A stretch of 64,000 nt of DNA from Mobula hypostoma (taxonomy: Eukaryota). A program made the translations under genes and the position numbers. Numbering within the stretch: the first letter of the stretch is position 1; the number at the start of each line of letters is the position of its first letter. Below are positions 23,755-57,876 of the stretch, piece by piece. The stretch lies in assembly GCF_963921235.1 (NCBI RefSeq), contig NC_086108.1, forward strand, positions 85,190,001 to 85,254,000, read 5' to 3'. The notes beneath the pieces were generated by a model, which was not told the origin of the DNA, did no database searches, and saw only the letters and a program-made list of their open reading frames with translations.

Positions 23755-25165
23755 ACTTAAGATTCAAGATTGTTCATAAAGGAAAGCAAAATAATTGTTA
23801 TTCCGTATCCAATACATCACAAGTAAACGCAATAAGATAAAGAATACAAGGATAAAAATACAATAAATAAACTGTAAATACATAACATAGCTTTTATATA
23901 TATGGATTGATTGTATGTCCATAAAGTGTTGCTAGGCACAGGAGTGTCTGTACTTAAGGTGGCAGAAAGGAGATGATAAAGTAGTGGTGGAGGGGTGGGT
24001 TAGTAGGTGGAGGTGTTGCTTGGGGAAAGTAACTGTTTTTGAGCCTGGTGGTCCTGGCATGGATGTTACATAGCCGCCTCCCTGAAGGGAGTGGGATAAA
24101 CAGTCCTTGAGCTGGGTGGGTGGAATCTTACATGATGTGGCTGGTCCTTTTCTGGCACCTTTCTGTACATATGTCCATGATGGTGGGTAGTTTGGTGCTG
24201 GTGATGTGTTGGGCAGTTTTGACTACCCATTGTAGAGCATTCCTGTCAGCCACAGTACAATTTCCATACCATGCAGTGATGCAGCAGTTTAGGATACTCT
24301 CTGCTGTGCATCTGTAGAAGGACGTGCATATGGATGTGCAAAGCCCAGCTCTCTTCAGGCTTCTTAGATTGTAGAGGTGTTGTTGAACTTTCCTGACTGT
24401 GTGAAATGTGTTCTGGGTCCATGACAGGTTGTGCACCCAGAGGTACACCCAGGAGTTTGACCTGCTCGCTATTTCTACTGCTGTACTGCTGAAGTAAAGG
24501 GTGCTCGGATTGGTACACGTCCTCTTGAAGTCAATAATTTTCTCCTTTGTTTTGTTGACATTGAGGAAGTGGTTATTTACCTGGCACCAGGCCTTGAGCT
24601 CTTCCACTTCCTCTCTGTAGGCTGACTCATCTTTGTTGGTGATGAGCCCTGCCACTATCATATCATTGGCGAACTTGACAATGTGATTACTTGGGTGTTT
24701 GGCTTTGCCGTTGTGAGTGCAGAGTGTACAGAAATACTCTCAGCACACAGCCACGGGGGTCTTCTGTGTTGAGGATGATGGGGAGGGAGGACTGTTTGTG
24801 TATCCTGACTATCTGAGGTCTGTTTGCTATGAAGTCCAACACTCAATTGCACACAGGTGTATTTAGACCGATGATTAGGAATTTGTTCACCAGAGCCTGT
24901 GAAACAATAGAGCTGAATGCCGAATTGAAATCCAGAAACAGCGTTCTGACGTTTCTCCTTATTTCCCGGGTGTGTCAGGGCCAGGTGCATTTCAGACAGC
25001 ATTTGTCATGGAACAGTTCTGCTGGCAAGTGTCCAATGTGGCAAGTTTTTGACATGTGGCATTACCAGTTGTTCAAAGCACTTCATGATGATTGACATCA
25101 ATACCACAGGGCAGTAGTCATTTAGTTCTAAAGGTGTAAAGTTTTTCGGTACAGGGATGATGGTA
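23755..25165 (-). mobile_element. Rex1/Babar LINE RT relic
   Basis: [61 protein letters not shown]. Confidence 0.88.
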
Positions 25166-25464: not shown

Positions 25465-26560
25465 CTGTGGAGGTCAGGTTGTTGGGTGCATCTGAGGCGG
25501 AGATTGATTGGTTCATGATTGGACATGGCATCAAAGGTTGTAGGGAGAAGGTCGGGAGTGGGGCTGAGGAGGGGAGAAAAAGATCAGCCATGGTTGAATA
25601 GTGGAGCAGACTCAATGGGCCAATGTCCTAATTCTGCTCCTATGTCTCACGGTCTTTCTTGATCTTTTTTCTGGTAACTTTATAATCCTTAAGAGCTCTA
25701 TTTGATTTTAACTTTATGTTAGTTTCCTTTCTTCTCTTGACTGAATCTGAACATCTAAGTTGCCCTTATTCTGCCATTCTTCTTCCTTTTTACTGGAGTA
25801 TACCTACCATGTACTCTGTGCAGTTGGTCTTTAAACACAGTCCGCATGTCAGATGTAGATTTACCCAAAAGCAGCTGTTTCAAAGCAACCCTCCCCAGTT
25901 CTTGCCTGATATTCTTGTAATTTGCCCAGTTCCAATGTTATACTCCCCTTTAAGGTCCACACTTAAGCTTATCTATAACTATATTAAAATGTAAGTAGTT
26001 GTGATCACTGTTGCCTAACTGTTCTCTCACTGGAAGATTAATCACCTGGACAGATTTGGTATCTAACACCAGACATAGTATAGCCCCTCCTCTTGTTGGA
26101 TTATTTACGTATTGATTTAAGAAACTCTTCTGGATGCATCTAATAACTTCTGTCCCATTTAAACTTCTTGAATCAAGGAGGTCCCAGTCTATGTTAGGGA
26201 AGTTGAAGTCACCGACTACAACAATCCTGGTTGTCCTTGCACCTTTTTCTGACCTGCCTGCATGTCTGTTCCTCAATGTTCCGGTGACTATTGGCAAGTC
26301 TGTACTGTAATATAAACCCTTCAGAATTATTGCTACTTTCTTATTTTTGAGCTATAGATTCAGTGGATGAGCCCTCCATTTTGTCCCCTATGAGTGCAGA
26401 TGTGATATTGTCCCTGATTAATAGCACAAATCTCCCTGCCCCCACCTCTCTTTTACCTCCTTCCCCATCTTTTGGAAAGCATCAAAACTGTGGGCCATTA
26501 AGCATCCATATCTGACCTCCTTTCAAATATGTTCATCACACTTAAACATAATACTCCTTG
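25465..26560. mobile_element. CR1 fragments (plus 3' end 25465-25655; minus endonuclease region 25660-26560)
   Basis: VVVGDFNFPNIDW..NPTRGGAIL..LGNSDHN. Confidence 0.8.
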
Positions 26561-28580: not shown

Positions 28581-29081
28581 ATTGGGTCTCCTGTCGCTAT
28601 TGCTTTTCTTGACTTTACCCTTCCCTGTTGAACCTCAGGGCCAGCCACAATGTCACCGCCATTGCTGCTGATGCTGAGTCCTGTGACAGGTCAACCCATT
28701 TCCCCCAGCTGAGCAGAATGGCCCCAGGGCAACCCTGCACTGACTGCCTACTTCCCTTACTTCTCCTAGTGGTCACCTGTATTCAGGGTGTGAGCACCTT
28801 GGTAAAAGCCTCATCGACAAACGCGCCAGCTCCTTGATGATCTTCAGTACCTTTTCACTTCATCTTAAGTGAAGTTGTAAATGGGAACTAATGATAAATT
28901 TTGAGCTATCATAAGTGCAATGTGTCACAGCTGATGTGCTAAGCAATGAAAGAATCCATTAAAAAGGGTCATGAAAGATTGGTAAACAACAGGAATTCTG
29001 CAGATGCTGGAAATTCAAGCAACATACATCAAAGTTGCTGGTGAACGCAGCAGGCCAAGCAGCATCTATAGGAAGAGGCGC

Positions 29082-29117
29082 AGTCGACGTTTCAGGCCGA
29101 GACCCTTCGTCAGGACT
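29082..29117 (-). ncRNA. Minimal type I hammerhead ribozyme
   Basis: Reverse complement is identical to 276-311. Confidence 0.85.
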
Positions 29118-29409
29118 AAATGAAGGAGGAGTGAGTAAGGGATTTGAAAGCTGGAGGGGGAGGGGGAGATGCAAAATGATAGGAGAAGACAGGAGGGGGA
29201 GGGATAGAGCCGAGAGCTGGACAGGTGATAGGCAAAAGGGGATACGAGAGGATCATGGGACAGGAGGCCTAGGGAGAAAGACGGGGGGGGTGACCCAGAG
29301 GATGGGCAAGAGGTATATTCAGAGGGACAGAGGGAGAAAAAGGAGAGTGAGAGAAAGAATGTGTGCATAAAAAGGAGTAACAGCTGGGGTACGAGGGGGA
29401 GGTGGGGCC

Positions 29410-30903
29410 TAGCGGAAGTTAGAGAAGTCAATGTTCATGCCATCAGGTTGGAGGCTACCCAGACGGAATATAAGGTGTTGTTCCTCCAACCTGAGTGTGG
29501 TTTCATCTTTACAGTAGAGGAGGCCGTGTCTGACATGTCAGAATGGGAATGGGATGTGGAATTAAAATGTGTGGCCACTGGGAGATCCTGCTTTCTCTGG
29601 CGGACAGAGCGTAGATGTTCAGCAAAGCGGTCTCCCAGTCTGCGTCGGGTCTCACCAATATATAAAAGGCCACATCGGGAGCACCGGACGCAGTATATCA
29701 CCCCAGTCGACTCACAGGTGAAGTGATGCCTCACCTGGAAGGACTGTTTGGGGCCCTGAATGGTGGTAAGGGAGGAAGTGTAAGGGCATGTGTAGCACTT
29801 GTTCCACTTACACGGATAAGTGCCAGGAGGGAGATCAGTGGGGAGGGATGGGGGGGACGAATGGACAAGGGAGTTGTGTAGGGAGCGATCCCTGCGGAAT
29901 GCAGAGAGAGGGGGGGAGGGAAAGATGTGCTTAGTGGTGGGATCCCGTTGGAGGTGGCGGAAGTTACGGAGAATAATATTTTGGACCCGGAGGCTGGTGG
30001 GGTGGTAGGTGAGGACCAGGGGAACCCTATTCCTAGTGGGGTGGTGGGAGGATGGAGTGAGAGCAGATGTACGTGAAATGGAGGAGATGCGTTTAAGAGC
30101 AGAGTTGATAGTGGAGGAAGGGAAGCCCCTTTCTTTAAAAAATGAAGACATCTCCCTCGTCCTAGAATGAAAAGCCTCATCCTGAGAGCAGATGCGGCGG
30201 AGACGGAGGAATTGCGAGAAGGGGATGGCGTTTTTGCAAGAGACAGGGTGAGAAGAGGAATAGTCCAGATAGCTGTGAGAGTCAGTAGGCTTATAGTAGA
30301 TATCAGTGGATAAGCTGTCTCCAGAGACAGAGACAGAAAGATCTAGAAAGGGGAGGGAGGTGTCGGAAATAGACCAGGTAAACTTGAGGGCAGGGTGAAA
30401 GTTGGAGGCAAAGTTAATAAAGTCAACGAGTTCTGCATGCGTGCAGGAAGCAGCGCCAATGCAGTCGTCGATATAGCGAAGGAAAAGTGGGGGACAGATA
30501 CCAGAATAGGCACGGAACATAGATTGTTCCACAAACCCAACGAAAAGGCAGGCATAGCTAGGACCCATACGGGTGCCCATAGCTACACCTTTAGGTTGGA
30601 GGAAATGGGAGGAGCAAAAGGAGAAATTATTAAGAGTAAGGACTAATTCCGCTAGATGGAGCAGAGTGGTGGTAGAGGGGAACTGATTAGGTCTGGATCC
30701 AAAAAGAAGCGTAGAGCTTTGAGACCTTCCTGATGGGGGATGGAAGTATATAAGGACTGGACATCCATGGTGAAAATAAAGCGGTGGGGGCCAGGGAACT
30801 TAAAATCATCGAAAAGTTTAAGAGCGTGAGAAGTTTCACGAACATAGGTCGGAAGGGATTGAACAAGGGGTGATAAAACAGTGTCGAGGTATGCAGAAAC
30901 GAG
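29410..30903 (-). pseudogene. PLE RT/GIY-YIG polyprotein (partial; frameshifts near 30690 and 29530)
   Basis: ORF 29435-30580 (381 aa) plus an upstream frame in 30652-30903; the C-terminus shifts after SHSDMS compared with 32068-32361. Confidence 0.88.
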
Positions 30904-31269
30904 ATAGCAGAGTTTTCTCCTCCATACCTGGCAGCACTTATCCTTCAACCAACACCATGATAAAACTAATTGTCTGCTAAATATTTTAGTGCTAGTTGTG
31001 GAAATTAATGCACTTAAACCAAGTGCTGGCTTCTTATGTTGCAATAGTTCCTTCATTTCCAAAAGTAATTCATCGATCATGAGACATCTTTGATATCCAG
31101 AATCATAAAAGGTGCTATAAAACTGGGCGTCCCCCAGTCTTTATTAGTAAGTAGCTGTCCCCTTCTCTATATCTAATGATCACTTTGATGAAAGATTAGA
31201 AAGTGCTAAGAATACTCAGCAGATCTGGAAACACGTGAAGAGAGAGAAAATAAGTCACCAATCTTTCAT

Positions 31270-32042
31270 ACATCAAAGTTGCTGGTGAACGCAGCAGGCC
31301 AAGCAGCATCTATAGGAAGAGGCGCAGTCGACGTTTCAGGCCGAGACCCTTCGTCAGGACTAACTGAAAGAAGAGTGAGTAAGGGATTTGAAAGCTGGAG
31401 GGGGAGGGGGAGATGCAAAATGATAGGAGAAGACAGGAGGGGGAGGGATAGAGCCGAGAGCTGGACAGGTGATAAGCAAAAGGGGATACGAGAGGATCAT
31501 GGGACAGGAGGCCTAGGGAGAAAGACGGGGGGGGGTGACCCAGAGGATGGGCAAGAGGTATATTCAGAGGGACAGAGGGAGAAAAAGGAGAGTGAGAGAA
31601 AGAATGTGTGCATAAAAAGGAGTAACAGCTGGGGTACGAGGGGAAGGTGGGGCCTAGCGGAAGTTAGAGAAGTCAATGTTCATGCCATCAGGTTGGAGGC
31701 TACCCAGACGGAATATAAGGTGTTGTTCCTCCAACCTGAGTGTGGTTTCATCTTTACAGTAGAGGAGGCCGTGTCTGACATGTCAGAATGGGAATGGGAT
31801 GTGGAATTAAAATGTGTGGCCACTGGGAGATCCTGCTTTCTCTGGCGGACAGAGCGTAGATGTTCAGCAAAGCGGTCTCCCAGTCTGCGTCGGGTCTCAC
31901 CAATATATAAAAGGCCACATCGGGAGCACCGGACGCAGTATATCACCCCAGTCGACTCACAGGTGAAGTGATGCCTCACCTGGAAGGACTGTTTGGGGCC
32001 CTGAATGGTGGTAAGGGAGGAAGTGTAAGGGCATGTGTAGCA
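31270..32042 (-). mobile_element. PLE 3' fragment, copy 2
   Basis: Direct repeat of ~29025-29797; GIY-YIG ORF 31680-31979. Confidence 0.93.
31326..31361 (-). ncRNA. Minimal type I hammerhead ribozyme
   Basis: agtcgacgtttcaggccgagacccttcgtcaggact is the reverse complement of the intact motif. Confidence 0.85.
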
Positions 32043-32745
32043 TCACTTCACCTGTGAGTCGACTGGGGTGATGTACTGCGTCCGGTGCTCCCGATGTGGC
32101 CTTTTATATATTGGTGAGACCCGACGCAGACTGGGAGACCGCTTTGCTGAACATCTACGCTCTGTCCGCCAGAGAAAGCAGGATCTCCCAGTGGCCACAC
32201 ATTTTAATTCCACATCCCATTCCCATTCTGACATGTCTATCCACGGCCTCCTCTACTGTAAAGATGAAGCCACACTCAGGTTGGAGGAACAACACCTTAT
32301 ATTCCGTCTGGGTAGCCTCCAACCTGATGGCATGAACATTGACTTCTCTAACTTCCGCTAGGCCCCACCTTCCCCTCGTACCCCAGCTGTTACTCCTTTT
32401 TATGCACACATTCTTTCTCTCACTCTCCTTTTTCTCCCTCTGTCCCTCTGAATATACCTCTTGCCCATCCTCTGGGTCACCCCCCCCCGTCTTTCTCCCT
32501 AGGCCTCCTGTCCCATGATCCTCTCGTATCCCCTTTTGCTTATCACCTGTCCAGCTCTCGGCTCTATCCCTCCCCCTCCTGTCTTCTCCTATCATTTTGC
32601 ATCTCCCCCTCCCCCTCCAGCTTTCAAATCCCTTACTCACTCTTCTTTCAGTTAGTCCTGACGAAGGGTCTCGGCCTGAAACGTCGACTGCGCCTCTTCC
32701 TATAGATGCTGCTTGGCCTGCTGCGTTCACCAGCAACTTTGATGT
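32040..32745 (+). mobile_element. PLE 3' fragment, copy 3 (inverted), intact GIY-YIG C-terminus
   Basis: ORF 32068-32361: YCVRCSRCGLLYIGETRRRLGDRFAEH..RLEEQHLIFRLGSLQPDGMNIDFSNFR*. Followed by TSD atgaaagattggt (32746-32758). Confidence 0.93.
32654..32689 (+). ncRNA. Minimal type I hammerhead ribozyme
   Basis: agtcctgacgaagggtctcggcctgaaacgtcgact. Confidence 0.85.
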
Positions 32746-33334
32746 ATGAAAGATTGGTGACTTATTTTCTCTCTCTTCACGTGTTTCCAGATCTGCTGAG
32801 TATTCTTAGCACTTTCTAATCTTTCATCAAAGTGATCATTAGATATAGAGAAGGGGACAGCTACTTACTAATAAAGACTGGGGGACGCCCAGTTTTATAG
32901 CACCTTTTATGATTCTGGATATCAAAGATGTCTCATGATCGATGAATTACTTTTGGAAATGAAGGAACTATTGCAACATAAGAAGCCAGCACTTGGTTTA
33001 AGTGCAGTAATTTCCACAACTAGCACTAAAATATTTAGCAGACAATTAGTTTTATCATGGTGTTGGTTGAAGGATAAGTGCTGCCAGGTATGGAGGAGAA
33101 AACTCTGCTATCCTTCGAGTTATGAGATCTTTTACTTCCACCCTGTTAGCTCAGCAAGTTTTGGATGTTTACAGAGGAAGAAAAAGCTAACAATAAAATG
33201 GTAAGTGAAGAGCACTGTTCAAAGTCTTTACATTTTTTCTTTTGTCTGGTGACCAGAACTGCACATGTTACCCCAAATGTGGCCTAAACAAAGTTTTATA
33301 GAGCTGCAACCTGACTTACTAACTTTTATATGAG

Positions 33335-36458: not shown

Positions 36459-36795
36459 CTCGCTTAAATTTACAATTGACTTTCTTAGCCATGAACTAGA
36501 ATGAAGTAGCTTGAAGATTGGAGAACAAATTGTACAGTGAAGTTGACAGTGGTGTTAGTGCTAGTTGGTGCAGGTTGCAGGGCAGTGGAAGTGCTGCAGT
36601 TGGGAGCAGGAAGATGGAGGCCTCTCTGCCTTAGTTAGGTGATGTTGAATAGTGAGAGACAAAATGAAATGGTTGTGATGAGAGGAACAGTCAAGGAAGC
36701 ATAAATTGTTAAATGCATTCAAAGAAAGACTTGCAACACACATCAAAGTTGCTGGTGAACGCAGCAGGCCAGGCAGCATCTCTAGGAAGAGGCAC

Positions 36796-36831
36796 AGTCG
36801 ACGTTTCAGGCCGAGACCCTTCGTCAGGACT
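36796..36831 (-). ncRNA. Minimal type I hammerhead ribozyme
   Basis: Reverse complement of the intact motif. Confidence 0.85.
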
Positions 36832-37723
36832 AACTGAAGGAAGAGTTAGTAAGAGACTGTGTTGCTTAAATTTCCAGCATCTGCAGAATTCCTGTTGTTT
36901 GCGTGAACCGTCGACTGTACCCCTTCCTAGAGATGCTGCCTGGCCTGCTGCGTTCACCAGCAACTTTGATGTGTGTTGCTTGAATTTCCAGCATCTGCAG
37001 AATTCCTGTTGTTTGCGCACTTATCCTTGTAAGCGGAACAAGTGCTACACATGCCCTTACACTTCCTCCCTTACCACCATTCAGGGCCCCAGACAGTCCC
37101 TCCAGGTGAGGCGACACTTCACCTGTGAGTCGGCTGGGGTGATATACTGTGTCCGGTGCTCCCAATGTGGCCTTCTATATATTGGTGAGACCCAATGCAG
37201 ACTGGGAGACCGCTTTGCTGAGCACCTATGCCCTGTCCACCAGAGAAAGCAGGATCTCCCAGTGGCCACACATTTTGATTCCACATCTCATTCCCATTCT
37301 GACATGTCTATCCACGGCCTCCTCTACTGTAAAGATGAAGCCACACTCAGGTTGGAGGAACAACACCTTATATTCCGTCTGGGTAGCCTCCAACCTGGTG
37401 GCATGAACATTGACTTCTCTAACTTCTGCTAATGCCCCACCTCCCTCTTGTACCCCATCCGTTATTTATTTATATACACACATTCTTTCTCTCTCTCTCC
37501 TTTTTCTCCCTCTGTCCCTCTGACTATACCCCTTGCCCATCCCCTGGGTTCCCCCCCTTGTCTTTCTCCCTGGACCTCCTGTCCTATGATCCTCTCATAT
37601 CCCCTTTGCCAATCACCTGTCCAGCTCTTGGCTCCATCCCTCCCCCTCCTGTCTTCTCCTATCATTTTGTATCTCCCCCTCCCCCTCCCACTTTCTAATC
37701 TCTTACTAACTCTTCCTTCAGTT

Positions 37724-37759
37724 AGTCCTGACGAAGGGTCTCGACCTGAAACGTCGACT
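37724..37759 (+). ncRNA. Minimal type I hammerhead ribozyme
   Basis: agtcctgacgaagggtctcgacctgaaacgtcgact; helix II has U-A instead of U-G, which preserves pairing. Confidence 0.85.
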
Positions 37760-38909
37760 GTACCTCTTCCTAGAGATGCTGCCTGGCCTGCTGCGTTCAC
37801 CAGCAACTTTGATGTGTGTTGCTTGAATTTCCAGCATCTGCAGAATTCCTGTTTGCGTTTTAAAAGAAATACTTTCTGCTTTTGACTTTTGATTTGCTCC
37901 TTTGAATTCCAATGGGGTTAAATATTCACACTGATCTTTAAGTTTACTGAACATATATTTCTTTAATGTCCGAATTATGTTTCTTTACAGTTTACTTTTT
38001 GCTGTATATTCAAGGATTACAGCAGTATTAAAGTATAAAAATCTACCATAGATACAATATGTCATGGACCCATCGCCATGACAACAGGCACCTCACGTGA
38101 CGTAGAAACTGGCCTCTCAGTAGTAATTTCTTGCAGTTAACCACGGCGATTGGAGCAGGTCTGTGCATGTACTGCTGTAAAACCGGCTCCAATTACATTT
38201 GCCTAGCCATAAATTAGTACTTTATAAATCCAACATCTCAATACGCGCTTCTCTGTTTTATAGACGGTTCTGTGCTGTTAAAGGTTGGAGGATATTTACC
38301 AAACACTAAAGATTCTTAGCACTTTCAAAAATAAATTAATACTGAAGCAACATGTTTATTTATTGGCCAGAAGTCCTTTAGAAACGGCAGAAGAAATGTG
38401 CATTTAAATTTGCTTTAAACCTTTCCACACAGATCATTCTAACTCATCAAGCTATGTAATGTTTCAGCCACTTTGCTTGCTTATCTTATATAATTTGTAT
38501 GGGACTGATAATGCAGTTCTGCTACTGAGGCAGGAATGACTGCTGTTTAAGTGCTCCACGTCCTTGTGATATAATGTGAGGTCAGCTTTTTCACAGATTA
38601 TTCAAGCACTCACTCTGTACAATGCATGACTCGATGCAAGTGCATAGCTTCAGAAACAGGGTGTTTGGCACCGGCAGCTATTAAAGTGCTGTTACCGACT
38701 TTTAAAGCTATCCTGCATTTAGAATGCGTGGAAACTGGCCAAAGCAGCGTAAAACACAGCAACTGTTCCATTCTGAGTAGGTGTGAAGACAAAGAAATGT
38801 ACCCTTTTTGGATGAGGGAGACAAACTTCATCATCATCGTGGTCTGAATAGACCGAAAATAATACGTTTCTTTCATTCTTGATGTGAAGGGTTGTCATTG
38901 TCCAGGAGT

Positions 38910-44654: not shown

Positions 44655-47600
44655 TGTAAAGTATTGATGTATTTCTTTTAGAGCAATGACCCCCTCCCTT
44701 AGCACTATGTATTGATCTGTTGTCTGAGCATGCGCTGTTGTCTGTGTATGTACATTGTTCTCTCTCTCTCTCTCACTGCAATGTCAATACACCAGTTAAA
44801 GACATTTCTCGCTTGTGTGCTTTTATTTAATTGATATGTAGTTGTACACAGACACAACAAATTGGCAACGAGTACGAACCTGACTGTCAGAAAATATTAC
44901 GAACTGTACCGACAGTTATGGGATAAAACAGGAAGAGTTAAACTGTACAAGAAAGTCATCACAGACACTAACAAAGGGACATGTGACAATGAAAGATGCG
45001 CCAAATTTAAAGAGAAAACAACGTGGCAACGTTTTCAGTTGGGGAAGTTGATGAATTTGTTAGCACTCATGAAGGCTGGGAGTTGTATATTGAGAGAGTT
45101 GAACTGTATTGTAACACAAACAATGTGGAGCAGTGAAAGAAGGCCCCTACACGTCTTAGTTTAATGGGCCCAAGAACATACAGTTGTTTACACAACTTAG
45201 TAATGCCTGTAAAGTCAGCAAGCAAGACATTTGACAAAATTGTTCCAATTTTCCAAAATCACTTGAGCCCTAAACCGCTGGTAATAGCTGAGAGATTTAG
45301 ATTTTACATAAGGATTCAGTCAAAAGACAAAAGCATTTCTGAATACATTTCAGAGATATGCAAACTTGCCTAGTACTGTGACTTTAGAGGTGGGCTTTCT
45401 GATGCATTAATGGACAGGCTTGTATGTGGCATGCACAGCCAAGGAACTCAATTGAGGCTACTATCTGAAAGAAACCTATCCTTAGAATGGGCATTGCCCA
45501 TTGCAATATCATCAGAGACTGCAGCAAAGGATGCAGCAGAACCACAGAAAAGGAGGTTAGGATGTGAAATGCACAAAATGTCCCTGAATGGTGCAAAAAA
45601 CCAAAGATGTTATCGATGTAGCAAATCCTCCCATGAAGCAAATGACTGTTGGTTCAAAGAAGAAGTCTGTAGAAAGGTCACATAGAGAGAATGTGCAAGG
45701 CAAACAAAAAGCACAACCGAGTGAAAAGTCTCAAACACAAAACTAAGCAAATGTATGAAGCTACTGAATACAAAACAGAATCAGACAACATAGAGTCTGA
45801 CAGAGGTGAACTATCATGCTTAGAACTGCATAGTATTACTGAAGCAGATCGCAGAATAATATAGATCACAATAGATGTGTGTGGTGTAAATTTGAAAATG
45901 AAGCTGGATACAGGCTCAGCTTTGTCTATAATTCCAGAGGCTGACTACAACAGACTGTTTTCTAAGATACCATTAGAGAAGCCCTCAGTGACGCTAAAGA
46001 CTTACACAGGCGAAAAAATGTCTCCCAAAGGCAAACTGAAAGTGAGGGTGATGCAGAGCAGTTAGAGCTTAATGTATTGTAAAGTGGAGGGCCAGCACTT
46101 CTCAGATGTGAATGGCTGAGAAAATTCAGCTAAGCTGACACTCAATCAAAACTCTCTGTGTGACATCAACAGGCAATAGTAATGCTAATGAGAAGGTGTT
46201 TAGAGAAGAGGATTGGTAAACTCAAAGGCATGAAAGCTAGAATTGAACCAGAGGAAACAGCAACACCAAGATTCTATGAAGTGCATCCAGTGCCTTCTGC
46301 ACTACATCCTGCAGTGGACGCTGAACTGCAAAGCTTGGAGGTGTCTAGAATTTCCTCCAAGGTTGATTGGAGATATTTGGGCCATGCCCATTGTCCTGGT
46401 GATCAAGAAAGGGAAGGCATATAAGGTGAGCATAACTGTGCAGTAACCACTGTCACAAATAGAAGACATTTTTGCATCCTTGGTAGGTGGCGAGAGGTTT
46501 TCAAAGATTGATTTGTCGCAAGCGAATCTGCAAATGGAGATTGAGGAGTCAAGCAGGAAGTTCCTTGCAATAAACACTCACAAGGGCCTGTACTAGTATA
46601 ATTGTCTTGTCTTTGGCATTGCATCAGCCCCAGCAATTAGACAAAGAGCGATGGATAAGTGCTCCAAGATATCCCAGGAACACAATGACATCATTTTGTT
46701 ACTGGCAAAATTTATAAAGAGCACCTCCAGAATGTTGGTAAAGTACTCACTAGGCTGAGTGAGTATGGTTTGCGTGCAAAGAGAGAGAAATGTGAGTTTT
46801 TCAAGCATGAATTATCATGTTGTGGACATGTCATTGACAAGCATGGCTTACATAAGGTAAAAGAGAAGATTGAAGCAGGTATACAGCCACCCAAAATGGA
46901 AAATGTGTCACAACTCAGGTCATATGTGGGCCTTGTAAACTACTATCACTGATTTCTCCCAAACATTGCTACAGTGCTGCATCCATTTGAATGCACTGTT
47001 ACAGACAGGAGCAAAGTGGGAATGGTTAGAAAGATTAGATTAGATTAGATTAAAAGGACACTCAGTCTCCGTTTATTGTCATTTAGAAATGCATGCATTA
47101 AGAAATGATACAATATTCCTCCAAAGTGATATCACAAAAAAACAGGACAAACCAAAGACTAACACTGACAACACCACATAATTATAACATATAGTTACAG
47201 CAGTGCAAAGCAATACCATAATTTGATAAAGAGCAGATCATGGGCACAGTAAAAAAAAAGTCTCAAAGTTCTGATCGACTCCTGATAGTCCTGATAGCAG
47301 GCGGCAAAAGGGAGAAGCTCTTCCTGCCATAAACCTCCAGACGCCGACAACTGCCGATGCATTGGAAGCAGCCGACCAGACCACAGCTGACTCTGAGTCC
47401 ATCTGAAAACTTCGAGCCTCCAACCAGCCCCTCTGATACAGCCTCCCAAGCACCATCCTCTGCCAAGCGCTTTGACCCCGCCCTGGCCGCCGAGGACTCA
47501 GGGCCTTCTCCTTCGGAGATTCTGGATCACACAGTAGCAGCAGCAGCGAAGAAGGCATTTCAGAAGTTTCTCCAGATGTTCCTCCGTGCTCTCATGTCTG

Positions 47601-48424: not shown

Positions 48425-50360
48425 TAGAAACATAGAAACATAGAAAATAGGTGCAGGAGTAGGCCATTCAGCCCTTCGAGCCTGCACCGCCATTCAGTAT
48501 GATCATGGCTGATCATCCAACTCAGAGCCCTGTACCAGACTTCCCTCCATACCCCCGATCCCTTTAGCCACAAAGGCCATATCTAACTCTTAAATATAGC
48601 CAATGAACTGGCCTCAGCTGTTTCCTGTGGCAGAGAATCCCACAGATTCACCACTCTGTGTGAAGAAGTTTTTCCTAATCTCGGTCCTAAAAGGCTTCCC
48701 CTTTATCCTCAAACTGTGACCCCTCGTTCTGGACTTCCCCAACATCGGGAACAATCTTCCTGCATCTAGCCTGTCCAATCCCTTTAGGATTTTGTATGTT
48801 TCAATAAGATCCCCCCTCAATCTTCTAAATTCCAATGAGTATAAGCCTAGTCGATCCAGTCTTTCATCATATGAAAGTCCTGCCATCCAGGAATCAATCT
48901 GGTGTACCTTGTTTGTACTCCTTCTATGACAAGAATGTCTTTCCTCAGATTAGGGGACCAAAACTTCACACAATACTCCAGGTGTGGTCTCACCAAGGCC
49001 TTGTATAACTGCAATAGTACCTCCCTGTTCCTGTACTCGAATCCTCTTGCTATAAATGCCAGCATACCATTCACCTTTTTCACCGCCTGCTGTACCTGCA
49101 TGCCCACTTTCAATGACTGGTGTATAATGACATCCAGGTCTCGTTGCACCTCCCCTTTTCCTAATCGGCCACCATTCAGATAATAATCTGTTTTCCTATT
49201 TTTGCCACCAAAGTGGATGACTTCACATTTATCCACATGAATTTGCATCTGCCATGAATTTGCCCACTCACCTAACATATCCAAGTCACCCTGCATCCTC
49301 TTAACACCCTCCTCACAGCTAACACTGCCGCCCAGCTTCGTGTCATCCGCAAACTTGGAGATGTTGCATTTAATTCCCTCATCTAAGTCATTAATATATA
49401 TTGTAAATAACTGAGGTCCCAGCACTGAGCCTTGTGATACCCCACTAGTCACTGCCTGCCATTCTGAAAAGGTCCCGTTTATTCCCACTCTTTGCTTCCT
49501 GTCTGCCAACCAATTCTCTATCCACATCAATACCTTACCCCCAATACCGTGTGCTTTAAGTTTGCACACTAATCTCTTGTGTGGGACCTTGTCAAAAGCC
49601 TTTTGAAAATCCAAATATACCACATCCACTGGTTCTCCCCTATCCACTCTACTAGTTATATCCTCAAAAAATTCTATTAGATTCGTCAGACATGATTTTC
49701 CTTTCACAAATCCATGCTCTTTGTCCGATGATTTCACCACTTTCCAAATGTGCTGTTATCACATCTTTGATAACTGACTCTAGCATTTTCCCCACCACCG
49801 ATGTCAGGCTAACCAGTCTATAATTCCCCGGTTTCTCTCTCCCTCCTTTTTTAAAAAGCGGGGTTACACACCCTCCAATCCTCAGGAACTAGTCCAGAAA
49901 CTAAAGAGTTTTGAAAAATTATCACTAATGCATCCACTATTTCTTGGGCTACTTCCTTAAGCACTCTGGGATGCAGACCATCTGGCCCTGGGGATTTATC
50001 TGCCTTTAGTCCCTTCAATTTACCTAACACCACTTCCCTATTAACATGTATTTCGCTCAGTTCCTCCATCTCACTAGACCCTCGGTTCCGTACTATTTCC
50101 CGAAGATTATTTATGTCCTCCTTCGTGAAGACAGAACCAAAGTAGTTATTCAATTGGTCTGCCATGTCCTTGTTCCCCATAATCAATTCACCTGTTTCTG
50201 TCTGTAGGGGACCTACATTTGCCTTAACCAATCTTTTTCTCTTCACATATCCATAAAAGCTTTTACAGTCAGTTTTTATGTTCCCTGCCAGTTTTCTCTC
50301 ATAATCTTTTCTCCCTTTCCTAATTAAAGCCTTTGTCCTCCTCTGCTGGACTCTGAATTC
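48425..50360 (-). mobile_element. Young CR1 LINE, 5'-truncated (RT domain nearly intact)
   Basis: ORF 48847-49740: HGFVKGKSCLTNL..YLDFQKAFDKVPH..QGSVLGP..KFADDTK; (tagaaaca)n tail. Confidence 0.95.
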
Positions 50361-55242: not shown

Positions 55243-55419
55243 CAACACACATAAAAAATGCTGGTGAACACAGCAGGCCAGGCAGCATCTATAGGAAGAT
55301 GCAGGTACAATCGAAGAGGTACTTCTTCCTATAGATGCTGCCTGGCCTGCTGCATTCACCAGCATTTTTTGTGTGTGTTGCTTGAATTTCCAGCATCTGC
55401 AGATTTCGTCGTGTTTGCG
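55243..55419. mobile_element. Short inverted PLE-tail insertion with 13-bp TSD
   Basis: Arms 55243-55298 and ~55326-55380; TSD ttccccttttttc at 55231-55243 and 55420-55432. Confidence 0.88.
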
Positions 55420-56504: not shown

Positions 56505-57876
56505 GTGAGTAATTAATTTGTAAATTAATTGCAGATATAAAACACAAAATATTTGATTGCGTATTTACTTAACCACTTCAAGTCAGTATTTAGTAGATGC
56601 ATATTTGGCGCAATTACATCCTCGAGTCTGTGTGGCTAGGTCTCTATCAGCTTTGCTCATCTGAACACAGCAAATTTTCCCCATTCTTCTTTACAAAACT
56701 GTTCAAACTCTGTCAAATTGCATGGGGATCGTGAGTGAACAGTCCTTTTCAAGTCTAGGCACAAAGTGTCAATTGGACTGAGGTCTAGACTCTGACTTGG
56801 CCACTCCAGGACATTAACTTTGTTGTTTCTAAGCCATTCCTGTGTAACTTTGGCTTCAGGCTTGGGGTCATTGTCTTGCAGGAAAACAGATCTTCTCCCA
56901 AGTCACAGTTCTCTTGCAGACTGCATCAGGTTTTCCTCCAGGATTTCCCTGTATTTTGCTGCATTAATTTTACCTTCTACCTTCACAAACATTCTAGGGC
57001 TTGCTGCAGTGAAGCATCCCCACAGTATGATGCAGACCCCACGTTGCATCACGGTAGGGATGGTGTGTTTCTGATGATACGCGGTGTTTGGCTTATGCCA
57101 GATTTAGTGTTTAGTCTGATGGCCAGAAAGCTCAGTTTTGGTTTGATCAGACATTAGAACCTTCTTCCAGCTGACTTCAGAGTCTCCCACATACCTTCTA
57201 GCAAACTCTAGCATTTCATGTGAGGTTTTTTTCAAGTGTCTTTCTCTTTGCCAGTCTCCCATAAAGCTGCGACTGGTGAAGCCTCTGGGCAACAGTTGTT
57301 GTATTTGCAGTCTCTCCCATCTCAGCCACTGAAGCTTGTAACTCCTCCAGAGTTGTCACAAGTCTCTTGGTGGCCTCCCTCACTAGTCCCCTTCTTACAC
57401 AGTCACTCAGTTTTTGAGGATTTTCTGCTCTAGGCAGATTTATAGTTTTACCATATTCTTTCCATTTCCTGATGATTGACTTAACTTTACTCCAAGGAAT
57501 ATTCGGTGACTTGGAAATTTTCTTGTATCCATCTCCTGACTCATGTATTTTTACAACAATCAATTGAAGCACCTTGACTGCACCTGGTGATCTCCACTTA
57601 ACTAACTGTGTGACTTCTAAAACCAATCGGCTGCACCAGTAATGATTTGGCGTGTCATATTAAAGGAGGTGAATACTTAGGCAATCAATTATTTTGTGTT
57701 TTATATTTGTAATTAATTTAGATCACTTTGTAGAGCTCTGTTCTCGCTTTGACACAAGTCTTTTTTCTGTTGACCAGTCTCACAAAAAAAGCCAAATTAA
57801 ATCCACTGTGATTCAATGTTGTAAAACAATAAAACATGAAAACTTTTGGGGGGGGAATTTTTTTGTATAGGCACTG
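56505..57876 (-). mobile_element. Tc1/mariner transposon, degenerate
   Basis: HESGDGYKKISKS..IPWSKVKSIIRKWKEYG..TTLEELQ; WKKVLMSDQTKTEL. Terminus cagtgcctata next to TA (57877-57878); internal inverted-repeat remnant 56518-56575 vs 57669-57720. Confidence 0.9.

Follow-up and report, generated by a model that had tools for sequence, protein, structure and literature searches.

An inverted copy of host flank and a mosaic third arm inside a Penelope-like element insertion of Mobula hypostoma

An insertion of a Penelope-like element (PLE) in the genome of Mobula hypostoma carries, between its two inverted arms, an additional block of 1.14 kb in which sequence of both arms is combined with an inverted copy of host DNA from outside the target-site duplication (TSD). 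It lies in a window of 64,000 nucleotides (NCBI RefSeq assembly GCF_963921235.1, contig NC_086108.1, positions 85,190,001 to 85,254,000 of the forward strand), in whose numbering coordinates are given here. The observation is confirmed as real, and its coordinates hold. We incline to the explanation that an ordinary two-armed PLE insertion received the block afterwards, by snap-back template switching in later DNA replication or repair. The snap-back path itself is very likely on the evidence of the sequence; given that path, the later timing is the likelier one.

Architecture of the insertion and the mosaic arm

The top strand reads left flank, the target T (28971-28983), arm A (minus), inverted flank ending in an inverted T, arm B (minus), arm C (plus), T and right flank. 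The features are as follows; organism B is a related organism described below.

28971..28983, plus: left TSD, 13 bp, present once in organism B's empty allele
28984..30903, minus: arm A, a 5′-truncated PLE of 1920 bp with a 39-nt tail; partial reverse transcriptase (RT) and GIY-YIG, decayed (two frameshifts)
29082..29117, minus: minimal hammerhead-like core of arm A (CTGAnGA, stem II, GAAAC, paired stem I), a pattern match with no Rfam hit
30903, unstranded: junction of A with the inverted flank, 1-nt overlap (g); a contig of run X1 begins exactly here
30903..31269, minus: inverted copy of flank 32746-33112, including a third target copy at 31257-31269; derived base at 31008, where organism B has the other base
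31270..31644, minus: outer part of arm B, identical to C, with the same tail-less start and three rare variants common to C
31645..31745, minus: interval containing the template switch; 31644 is the last site that matches C and 31746 the first that matches A
31746..32042, minus: inner part of arm B, identical to A, sharing a missense change and a rare GIY-YIG frameshift
31972..32039, unstranded: palindrome loop, 68 nt, present in A and not in C
32040..32042, unstranded: junction of B with C, 3-nt overlap (gca)
32040..32748, plus: arm C, a 5′-truncated, tail-less PLE whose last three nucleotides (atg) are common to the TSD
32746..32758, plus: right TSD, 13 bp
32746..33112, plus: single-copy host flank from which the inverted copy derives

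Much of this layout had been described in a sequence-only reading of the window, made from the letters without database searches. Its 13-bp TSD lies where it was placed and is not extendable beyond 28971-28983 and 32746-32758; its three PLE segments (28984-30903 and 31270-32042, minus; 32040-32745, plus) and its junction microhomologies of 1 nt (g) and 3 nt (gca) also stand. A third overlap, 3 nt (atg), occurs at the junction of C with the TSD, and depending on how the overlaps are assigned arm B starts at 31267 or 31270 and ends at 32042, and arm C runs from 32040 to 32745 or 32748. Arm A is longer than B and C by the 39-nt tail. Self-comparison of the window recovers the 2.2-kb palindrome of that reading at 30903-33112, with arms of about 1.07 kb that differ by four events, together with a direct repeat (29023-29797 and 31267-32042). 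The centre of the palindrome folds as expected, and a double-stranded RNA hairpin would form if the locus were transcribed.

The extra block occupies 30904-32039, and is made up of inverted flank (367 bp) followed by C-type and then A-type PLE. The inverted flank is the reverse complement of 32746-33112 with a single difference (31008 versus 33007), and extends 354 bases past the target. The whole 3.48-Gb assembly holds only the source and the inverted copy of this sequence. As had been claimed, the copied flank is local host DNA from outside the TSD; it is single-copy.

Arm B is not a plain third copy of the element but the product of a single switch, C-type outside and A-type inside. It agrees with C at 6/6 of the outer differences (B 31364-31644) and with A at all three inner events (31746, 31774-76 and 31941); its last 68 nt are found in A and missing from C, and it begins at exactly the junction of C. 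Read along the bottom strand, the segments run from flank through T and C to the inner end of C, where after a 3-nt overlap A is entered at its position 812 and read backwards. Within 31645-31745 the sequence then switches to the complement of C, followed by T, 354 bp of flank, a 1-nt overlap and all of A.

This order suggests a path for the bottom strand. Synthesis through C would reach the inner end of C and prime on A at the 3-nt gca, and some 300-400 nt of A would be copied. The new strand, complementary to part of its own C sequence, would then fold back, leaving the 68-nt loop; it would go on to copy the outer part of C, the target and 354 further bases of flank, before rejoining the inner end of A via the 1-nt match. 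The inverted repeat formed by A and C would be the source of both the fragile site and the homology, and the fold-back would provide the reason both for the switch between C and A and for the backwards entry into the flank.

The sequence-only reading had proposed instead that the RT primed at both ends of the break and jumped from RNA to target DNA and back to RNA. Priming at both ends agrees with the ordinary layout of the family and with the extension of both strands by a PLE enzyme in vitro (both below). The jump fares less well, since it predicts that B should match one template throughout, and B is a mosaic of C and A. In this scheme the RT working on cDNA A would jump to the flank 367 bp past the cut, copy back to the target and return to RNA. 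It yields the same top-strand order of segments, and RT template jumps typically use a match of 1 nt; yet it calls for an extra, undriven switch from C-type to A-type, for an accessible 3′ end of the flank at +367, and for the same two lost source RNAs as the insertion-time explanation discussed below. We regard it as very improbable. The snap-back path appears to need fewer unmotivated jumps, while the sequence-only reading, its mirror on the top strand, would need the same switch without a driver.

Could the block have been created by fold-back chimeric long reads during assembly? Short-read contigs of four runs were compared with 28600-31290: X1 and X3 from organism A, and X5 and X7 from the related organism B, the latter two from one sample. 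X1 and X3 probably represent the assembled sample, and so are not independent individuals. In organism B (X5 and X7) one contig, about 970 letters long, passes from 28600-28983 straight into the reverse complement of 30903-31256 and on beyond it, differing from the window at 3/384 and 10/354 letters. It represents the empty allele, with only one copy of the target; the sequence-only reading had suggested looking for such an allele elsewhere. Since organism B has the source base at 31008, the derived one belongs to the inverted copy. The left flank of organism A extends without branching for 24 letters into arm A at a depth of 13; the flank contig of both runs carries the base private to the inverted copy at a depth of 18 versus 13 for the left flank, and in X1 this contig starts exactly at 30903. 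As to zygosity, a depth ratio of about 1.4 would suit a single carrier chromosome, and the presence of the copy's base in both runs agrees better with two.

An artefact would be in keeping with that ratio of about 1.4-fold rather than 2-fold, and with the new junctions: none of the listed contigs spans the 30903 or 32040 junction with 31 letters on each side, so that the read proof of both is indirect. On the other side, the private base of the copy is present in contigs of two runs, the depth is elevated and the end of one contig falls at 30903. Moreover a fold-back would copy C exactly, and B is not the reverse complement of C; it has rare variants of A and 68 nt that C lacks. An artefact is accordingly the least probable of the explanations considered.

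The element and the ordinary form of its insertions

The sequence features point to an endonuclease-bearing Penelope-like element, with RT followed by a C-terminal GIY-YIG, a one-sided tail and pseudo-LTR units (pLTR; LTR, long terminal repeat). A sibling copy (L198) has an open frame of 936 aa matching RVT_1 (E 5.9e-5) and then GIY-YIG (E 9e-4), both below the Pfam cut-off, and the fragment in arm C exceeds the GIY-YIG cut-off (22.8 versus 22.6 bits). All three arms contain a candidate hammerhead-like core with a paired stem I, as matched by a pattern; an Rfam scan gave no hits at E ≤ 1, and a sequence search of the PDB gave none.

A count of one ancestral motif puts the family at 20,460 copies. 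All three arms are members of a young subfamily, of which 1,361 marker copies were found. We sampled by position 80 loci from the whole family and 80 from the young subfamily, subtracting the window's own locus from the first count; 6/80 young loci fell under the length or identity filter of the structure count, and were kept in the scan of flanks. The first set gave 83 insertions, with 29 inverted tail-out units (of which 2-4 may be adjacent insertions fused by a 700-bp rule), 42 single and 12 other; the young set gave 74, with 26 tail-out, 39 single and 9 other. In all, 55/157 sampled insertions are tail-out. Every one of the 26 young tail-out units has one tailed and one tail-less end, with a TSD of 12-16 bp in 24 of them; exactly one end of each kind is found in about 24/29 older units. 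Tandem units also occur (L093 and L105), so that the tandem and inverted pseudo-LTR structures invoked by the sequence-only reading are both present in the family.

A and C inside the TSD are the ordinary layout for this family, since they match both the sampled tail-out units and the published inverted-pLTR unit, for which the accessible text describes Pen2a_Av (PMC3846280) and a general scheme for endonuclease-bearing PLEs (PMC8557442). The likeness to the units there described extends to 5′-truncated inverted arms within one TSD, RT with C-terminal GIY-YIG, a candidate hammerhead-like motif near the end, and a tail of 30-40 nt (39 nt here) on one arm only. Unlike them, this locus adds the 1.14-kb central block, a mosaic of both arms with host flank from outside the TSD. 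The PAc protein of Poseidon is reported to cleave and extend both strands in vitro, and the combination of tailed and tail-less ends fits two RT start sites together with such extension (PMC11167929, in the part available). In some pairs (L161, L186, L040 and L074) the two arms come from different subfamilies, those of L161 and L186 being 4-5% apart, which points to the use of two RNAs per insertion.

The sequence-only reading had recommended a search for other PLE insertions containing inverted flank, and we made it on the sample: a block of arm plus flank was found in 0/157 insertions, and a small inverted patch in one. The latter (L119:2955-2996) is a single PLE inside an 11-bp TSD, at whose 5′ junction a little filler stands with 38 bp that repeat exactly, in inverted orientation, flank lying some 690 bp off. 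A young insertion with a 13-bp TSD (L160:5574-7239) has an internal fold-back with several switches; it was not counted as a flank copy, the 83 bp duplicated being from the element's own 5′ region. Other candidates were rejected: two 59-bp sequences in inverted orientation, 1.7 kb from each other and next to a PLE 5′ end (L201:3336-5069), are likely to be the ends of a DNA transposon, and the repeats at L129 and L059 lie outside the TSD.

The window contains further PLE sequence. At 36733-37853 there is an older (92%) cluster, in which a short end in inverted orientation is followed by an isolated tail piece of 41 nt, an end of 114 nt and an arm of 840 nt, and at 55243-55416 a tiny tail-out remnant of 60 and 93 nt with about 88% identity.

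When the block was made

The rare variants of the arms bear on both the source and the age of the block. B has three in common with C and two with A. Across 12,813 bp the arms of 20 ordinary young pairs have seven rare variants in common and 106 differences, from which the number expected in the 770 bp of B is 0.4 (a hand calculation). The excess indicates that B was copied from these very arms or from their very templates. That the whole structure formed in a single event, as in the sequence-only reading, is doubtful given the five rare variants that B shares with A or C.

The load of rare variants is 12/1,833 in A and 5/659 in C, about 0.6% and so typical of the subfamily, whose median is 0.5%. 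Singletons of the subfamily (146 non-synonymous, 51 synonymous and 4 stop, against expected fractions of 0.68/0.30/0.03) are neutral, while variants in at least four copies are mostly silent (6 synonymous to 2 non-synonymous). Rare variants are enriched 4-fold at CpG and over-dispersed among copies (p 8e-9), some copies having none in more than 900 bp. Taken together these properties make the load look like decay after insertion. Over the 2,274 lineage-bases of the block and its templates a single change is seen (P 0.002 at 0.37%), the block having one private change. If the rare variants are indeed post-insertional, the block is probably younger than the insertion. The inner junction offers a further hint. 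The last three nucleotides of A (gag) are the three that precede the start of C in the element, so that A and C could once have been joined directly by a 3-nt overlap, and the block may sit in such an earlier junction without loss.

Sources carrying these variants were sought in the assembly. The frameshift motif of A occurs in three places genome-wide (A, B and one older-subfamily copy), compared with 20,460 for the ancestral motif. No source copy with the variant set of C was present among 40 scored of 2,898 candidates, and none of 25 carriers of one of its variants on the stretch covered lay next to any carrier listed for the second (100/286 places listed, compared by eye). The idea that a short A was extended from another genomic copy after cruciform cleavage gained no support, no exact donor for the inner 1.1 kb of A being present among 40 scored of 1,651 candidates (30500-30903 tested).

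The only other carrier of A's frameshift is an older-subfamily PLE (L042:3060-5601) at about 84.96 Mb, 255 kb before the window, a nearness to A with a chance of about 1.5e-4 (hand calculation). It shares with A a second rare variant, found in 71 copies; the sites between the two variants differ. It was rejected as the source of A, being without A's subfamily markers and differing at 38 sites. This frameshift makes a local palindrome perfect, and two distant 85%-identical copies have similar changes; thus the mutation can recur. Patchy exchange between this copy and the locus of A is a possible explanation for what they share.

Such exchange raises the question of gene conversion, whereby all parts would have come from one RNA type at insertion and B would later have been overwritten by C in its outer and A in its inner part. 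Palindrome arms and nearby direct repeats can convert, and the two rare variants shared over 255 kb suggest that local exchange may occur. However, ten ordinary near-symmetric pairs have 64 arm differences versus four shared rare variants, and conversion within the hairpin should have evened the inner arm too, yet B and C differ there at three events. We give this explanation very little credence.

Several observations weigh against a later origin. The support from the gag match is weak, because its chance background is about 1 in 8 (a hand estimate) and overlaps of at least 3 nt are found at 8/29 centre junctions. The 3-nt overlap of B and C resembles an ordinary centre junction made at insertion. 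Free cDNA ends are naturally present at that time. The family makes templated patches inside the TSD (the 38 bp of L119) and internal fold-backs (L160), and the mixed-subfamily arms of L161 and L186 show that two unlike RNAs can serve one insertion. Arm loads within pairs are uncorrelated (rho 0.13, p 0.57, 20 pairs), lending no support to arms of the same age that decayed later; the search for a source of C covered 100/286 places listed; and the direction of synthesis is not readable from sequence alone. Lastly, analogous structures of the L1 element form at insertion, in the available text of PMC10191854 and 10.1101/2024.12.14.628481.

For these reasons formation during insertion has to be weighed seriously, though over all its versions, that of the sequence-only reading included, we judge it the less probable timing. 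In its principal version, unlikely but well short of negligible, two RNAs are reverse transcribed off the two cut strands; cDNA C primes on cDNA A, folds back and enters the flank, and closure joins the 3′ end of A instead of trimming a 1.1-kb flap of A. No later break is then necessary, both junction types are like ordinary centre junctions, two-template pairs exist, and L119 and L160 exhibit switching inside TSDs. For L1 the precedent amounts to 0.3-0.4% of somatic insertions (PMC10191854, as far as its accessible text goes). Yet both RNAs, one of them with a frameshifted endonuclease, would have to carry about 0.55% of rare variants, and the searches of the assembly found no source for either; the insertion would also need to be very young to show only the one change in 2,274 lineage-bases. 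In addition 2/6 substitutions of A beyond the overlap with B are CpG transitions. A related proposal, which we hold to be somewhat more doubtful again, is that the locus is a frozen intermediate of PLE integration, in which two RNAs were copied from the two cut strands and one cDNA primed internally on the other, making the centre junction.

Comparison with known systems and wider implications

The fork template-switch models known as fork stalling and template switching (FoSTeS), microhomology-mediated break-induced replication (MMBIR) and origin-dependent inverted-repeat amplification (ODIRA) are of a class comparable to snap-back switching in later replication or repair. A further comparison is with insertions of L1 with fold-back inverted duplication of flank, described by Nam et al. 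2023 (3 + 1 events, 52-220 bp; PMC10191854) and by Mendez-Dorantes et al. in their Figure 4 (10.1101/2024.12.14.628481). In the accessible portions of these papers, as here, an inverted duplicate of flank lies beside a retro-insertion, the TSD is kept, there is short microhomology at the turn, and closure resembles end joining with 0-1 nt. The L1 fold-back, however, lies in genomic DNA at the end free of cDNA and is made at insertion, whereas here the turn (32040-32042) and the loop are in PLE sequence, both ends bear PLE arms with long arm-to-arm homology, and the block looks younger than the arms.

At yeast breaks, templated inverted insertions also combine a microhomology-primed fold-back at one end with end joining at the other, using local inverted pieces; local events are mostly of 5-34 bp in the part of PMC11724301 available. 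The present event differs in its 1.14 kb, its three switches and its seeding by the retroelement's own inverted arms. In the literature searched we found no PLE with such a block, and more examples from L1 or PLEs may stand in the supplementary files of these papers. The parts are known separately, as inverted PLE units, fold-back duplications at L1 sites and templated inverted insertions, and it is their combination at a PLE that is rare.

What the locus means depends on the timing. If the block was added later, this genome's inverted PLE pairs, which number in the thousands and make up about one third of sampled insertions in a family of more than 20,000 copies, offer lasting substrates for template switching. 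Host DNA could then be duplicated long after the death of an element, and such scars would not be evidence on the mechanics of PLE insertion. If instead it formed at insertion, the mosaic arm records one cDNA priming on another, an unobserved step of PLE integration; as a frozen intermediate it would be fossil evidence on the origin of PLE inverted repeats, in favour of two-strand, two-RNA priming over antisense self-priming. With either timing this is one locus, apparently an inert scar for which no function is predicted. The useful gain is one of method, in that rare variants within the arms can date and order the switches.

The remainder of the window was scanned for domains in 93 of the 112 open frames of at least 85 aa outside the locus (PLE-overlapping frames being excluded). 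This revealed no host gene but transposon domains and weak sub-threshold hits only, in a scan that short exons would escape. Fragments of LINE-type RT/endonuclease and of Tc1-type transposase are located at 24131-24739, 25953-26351, 46689-46949, 48850-49755 and 57219-57659.

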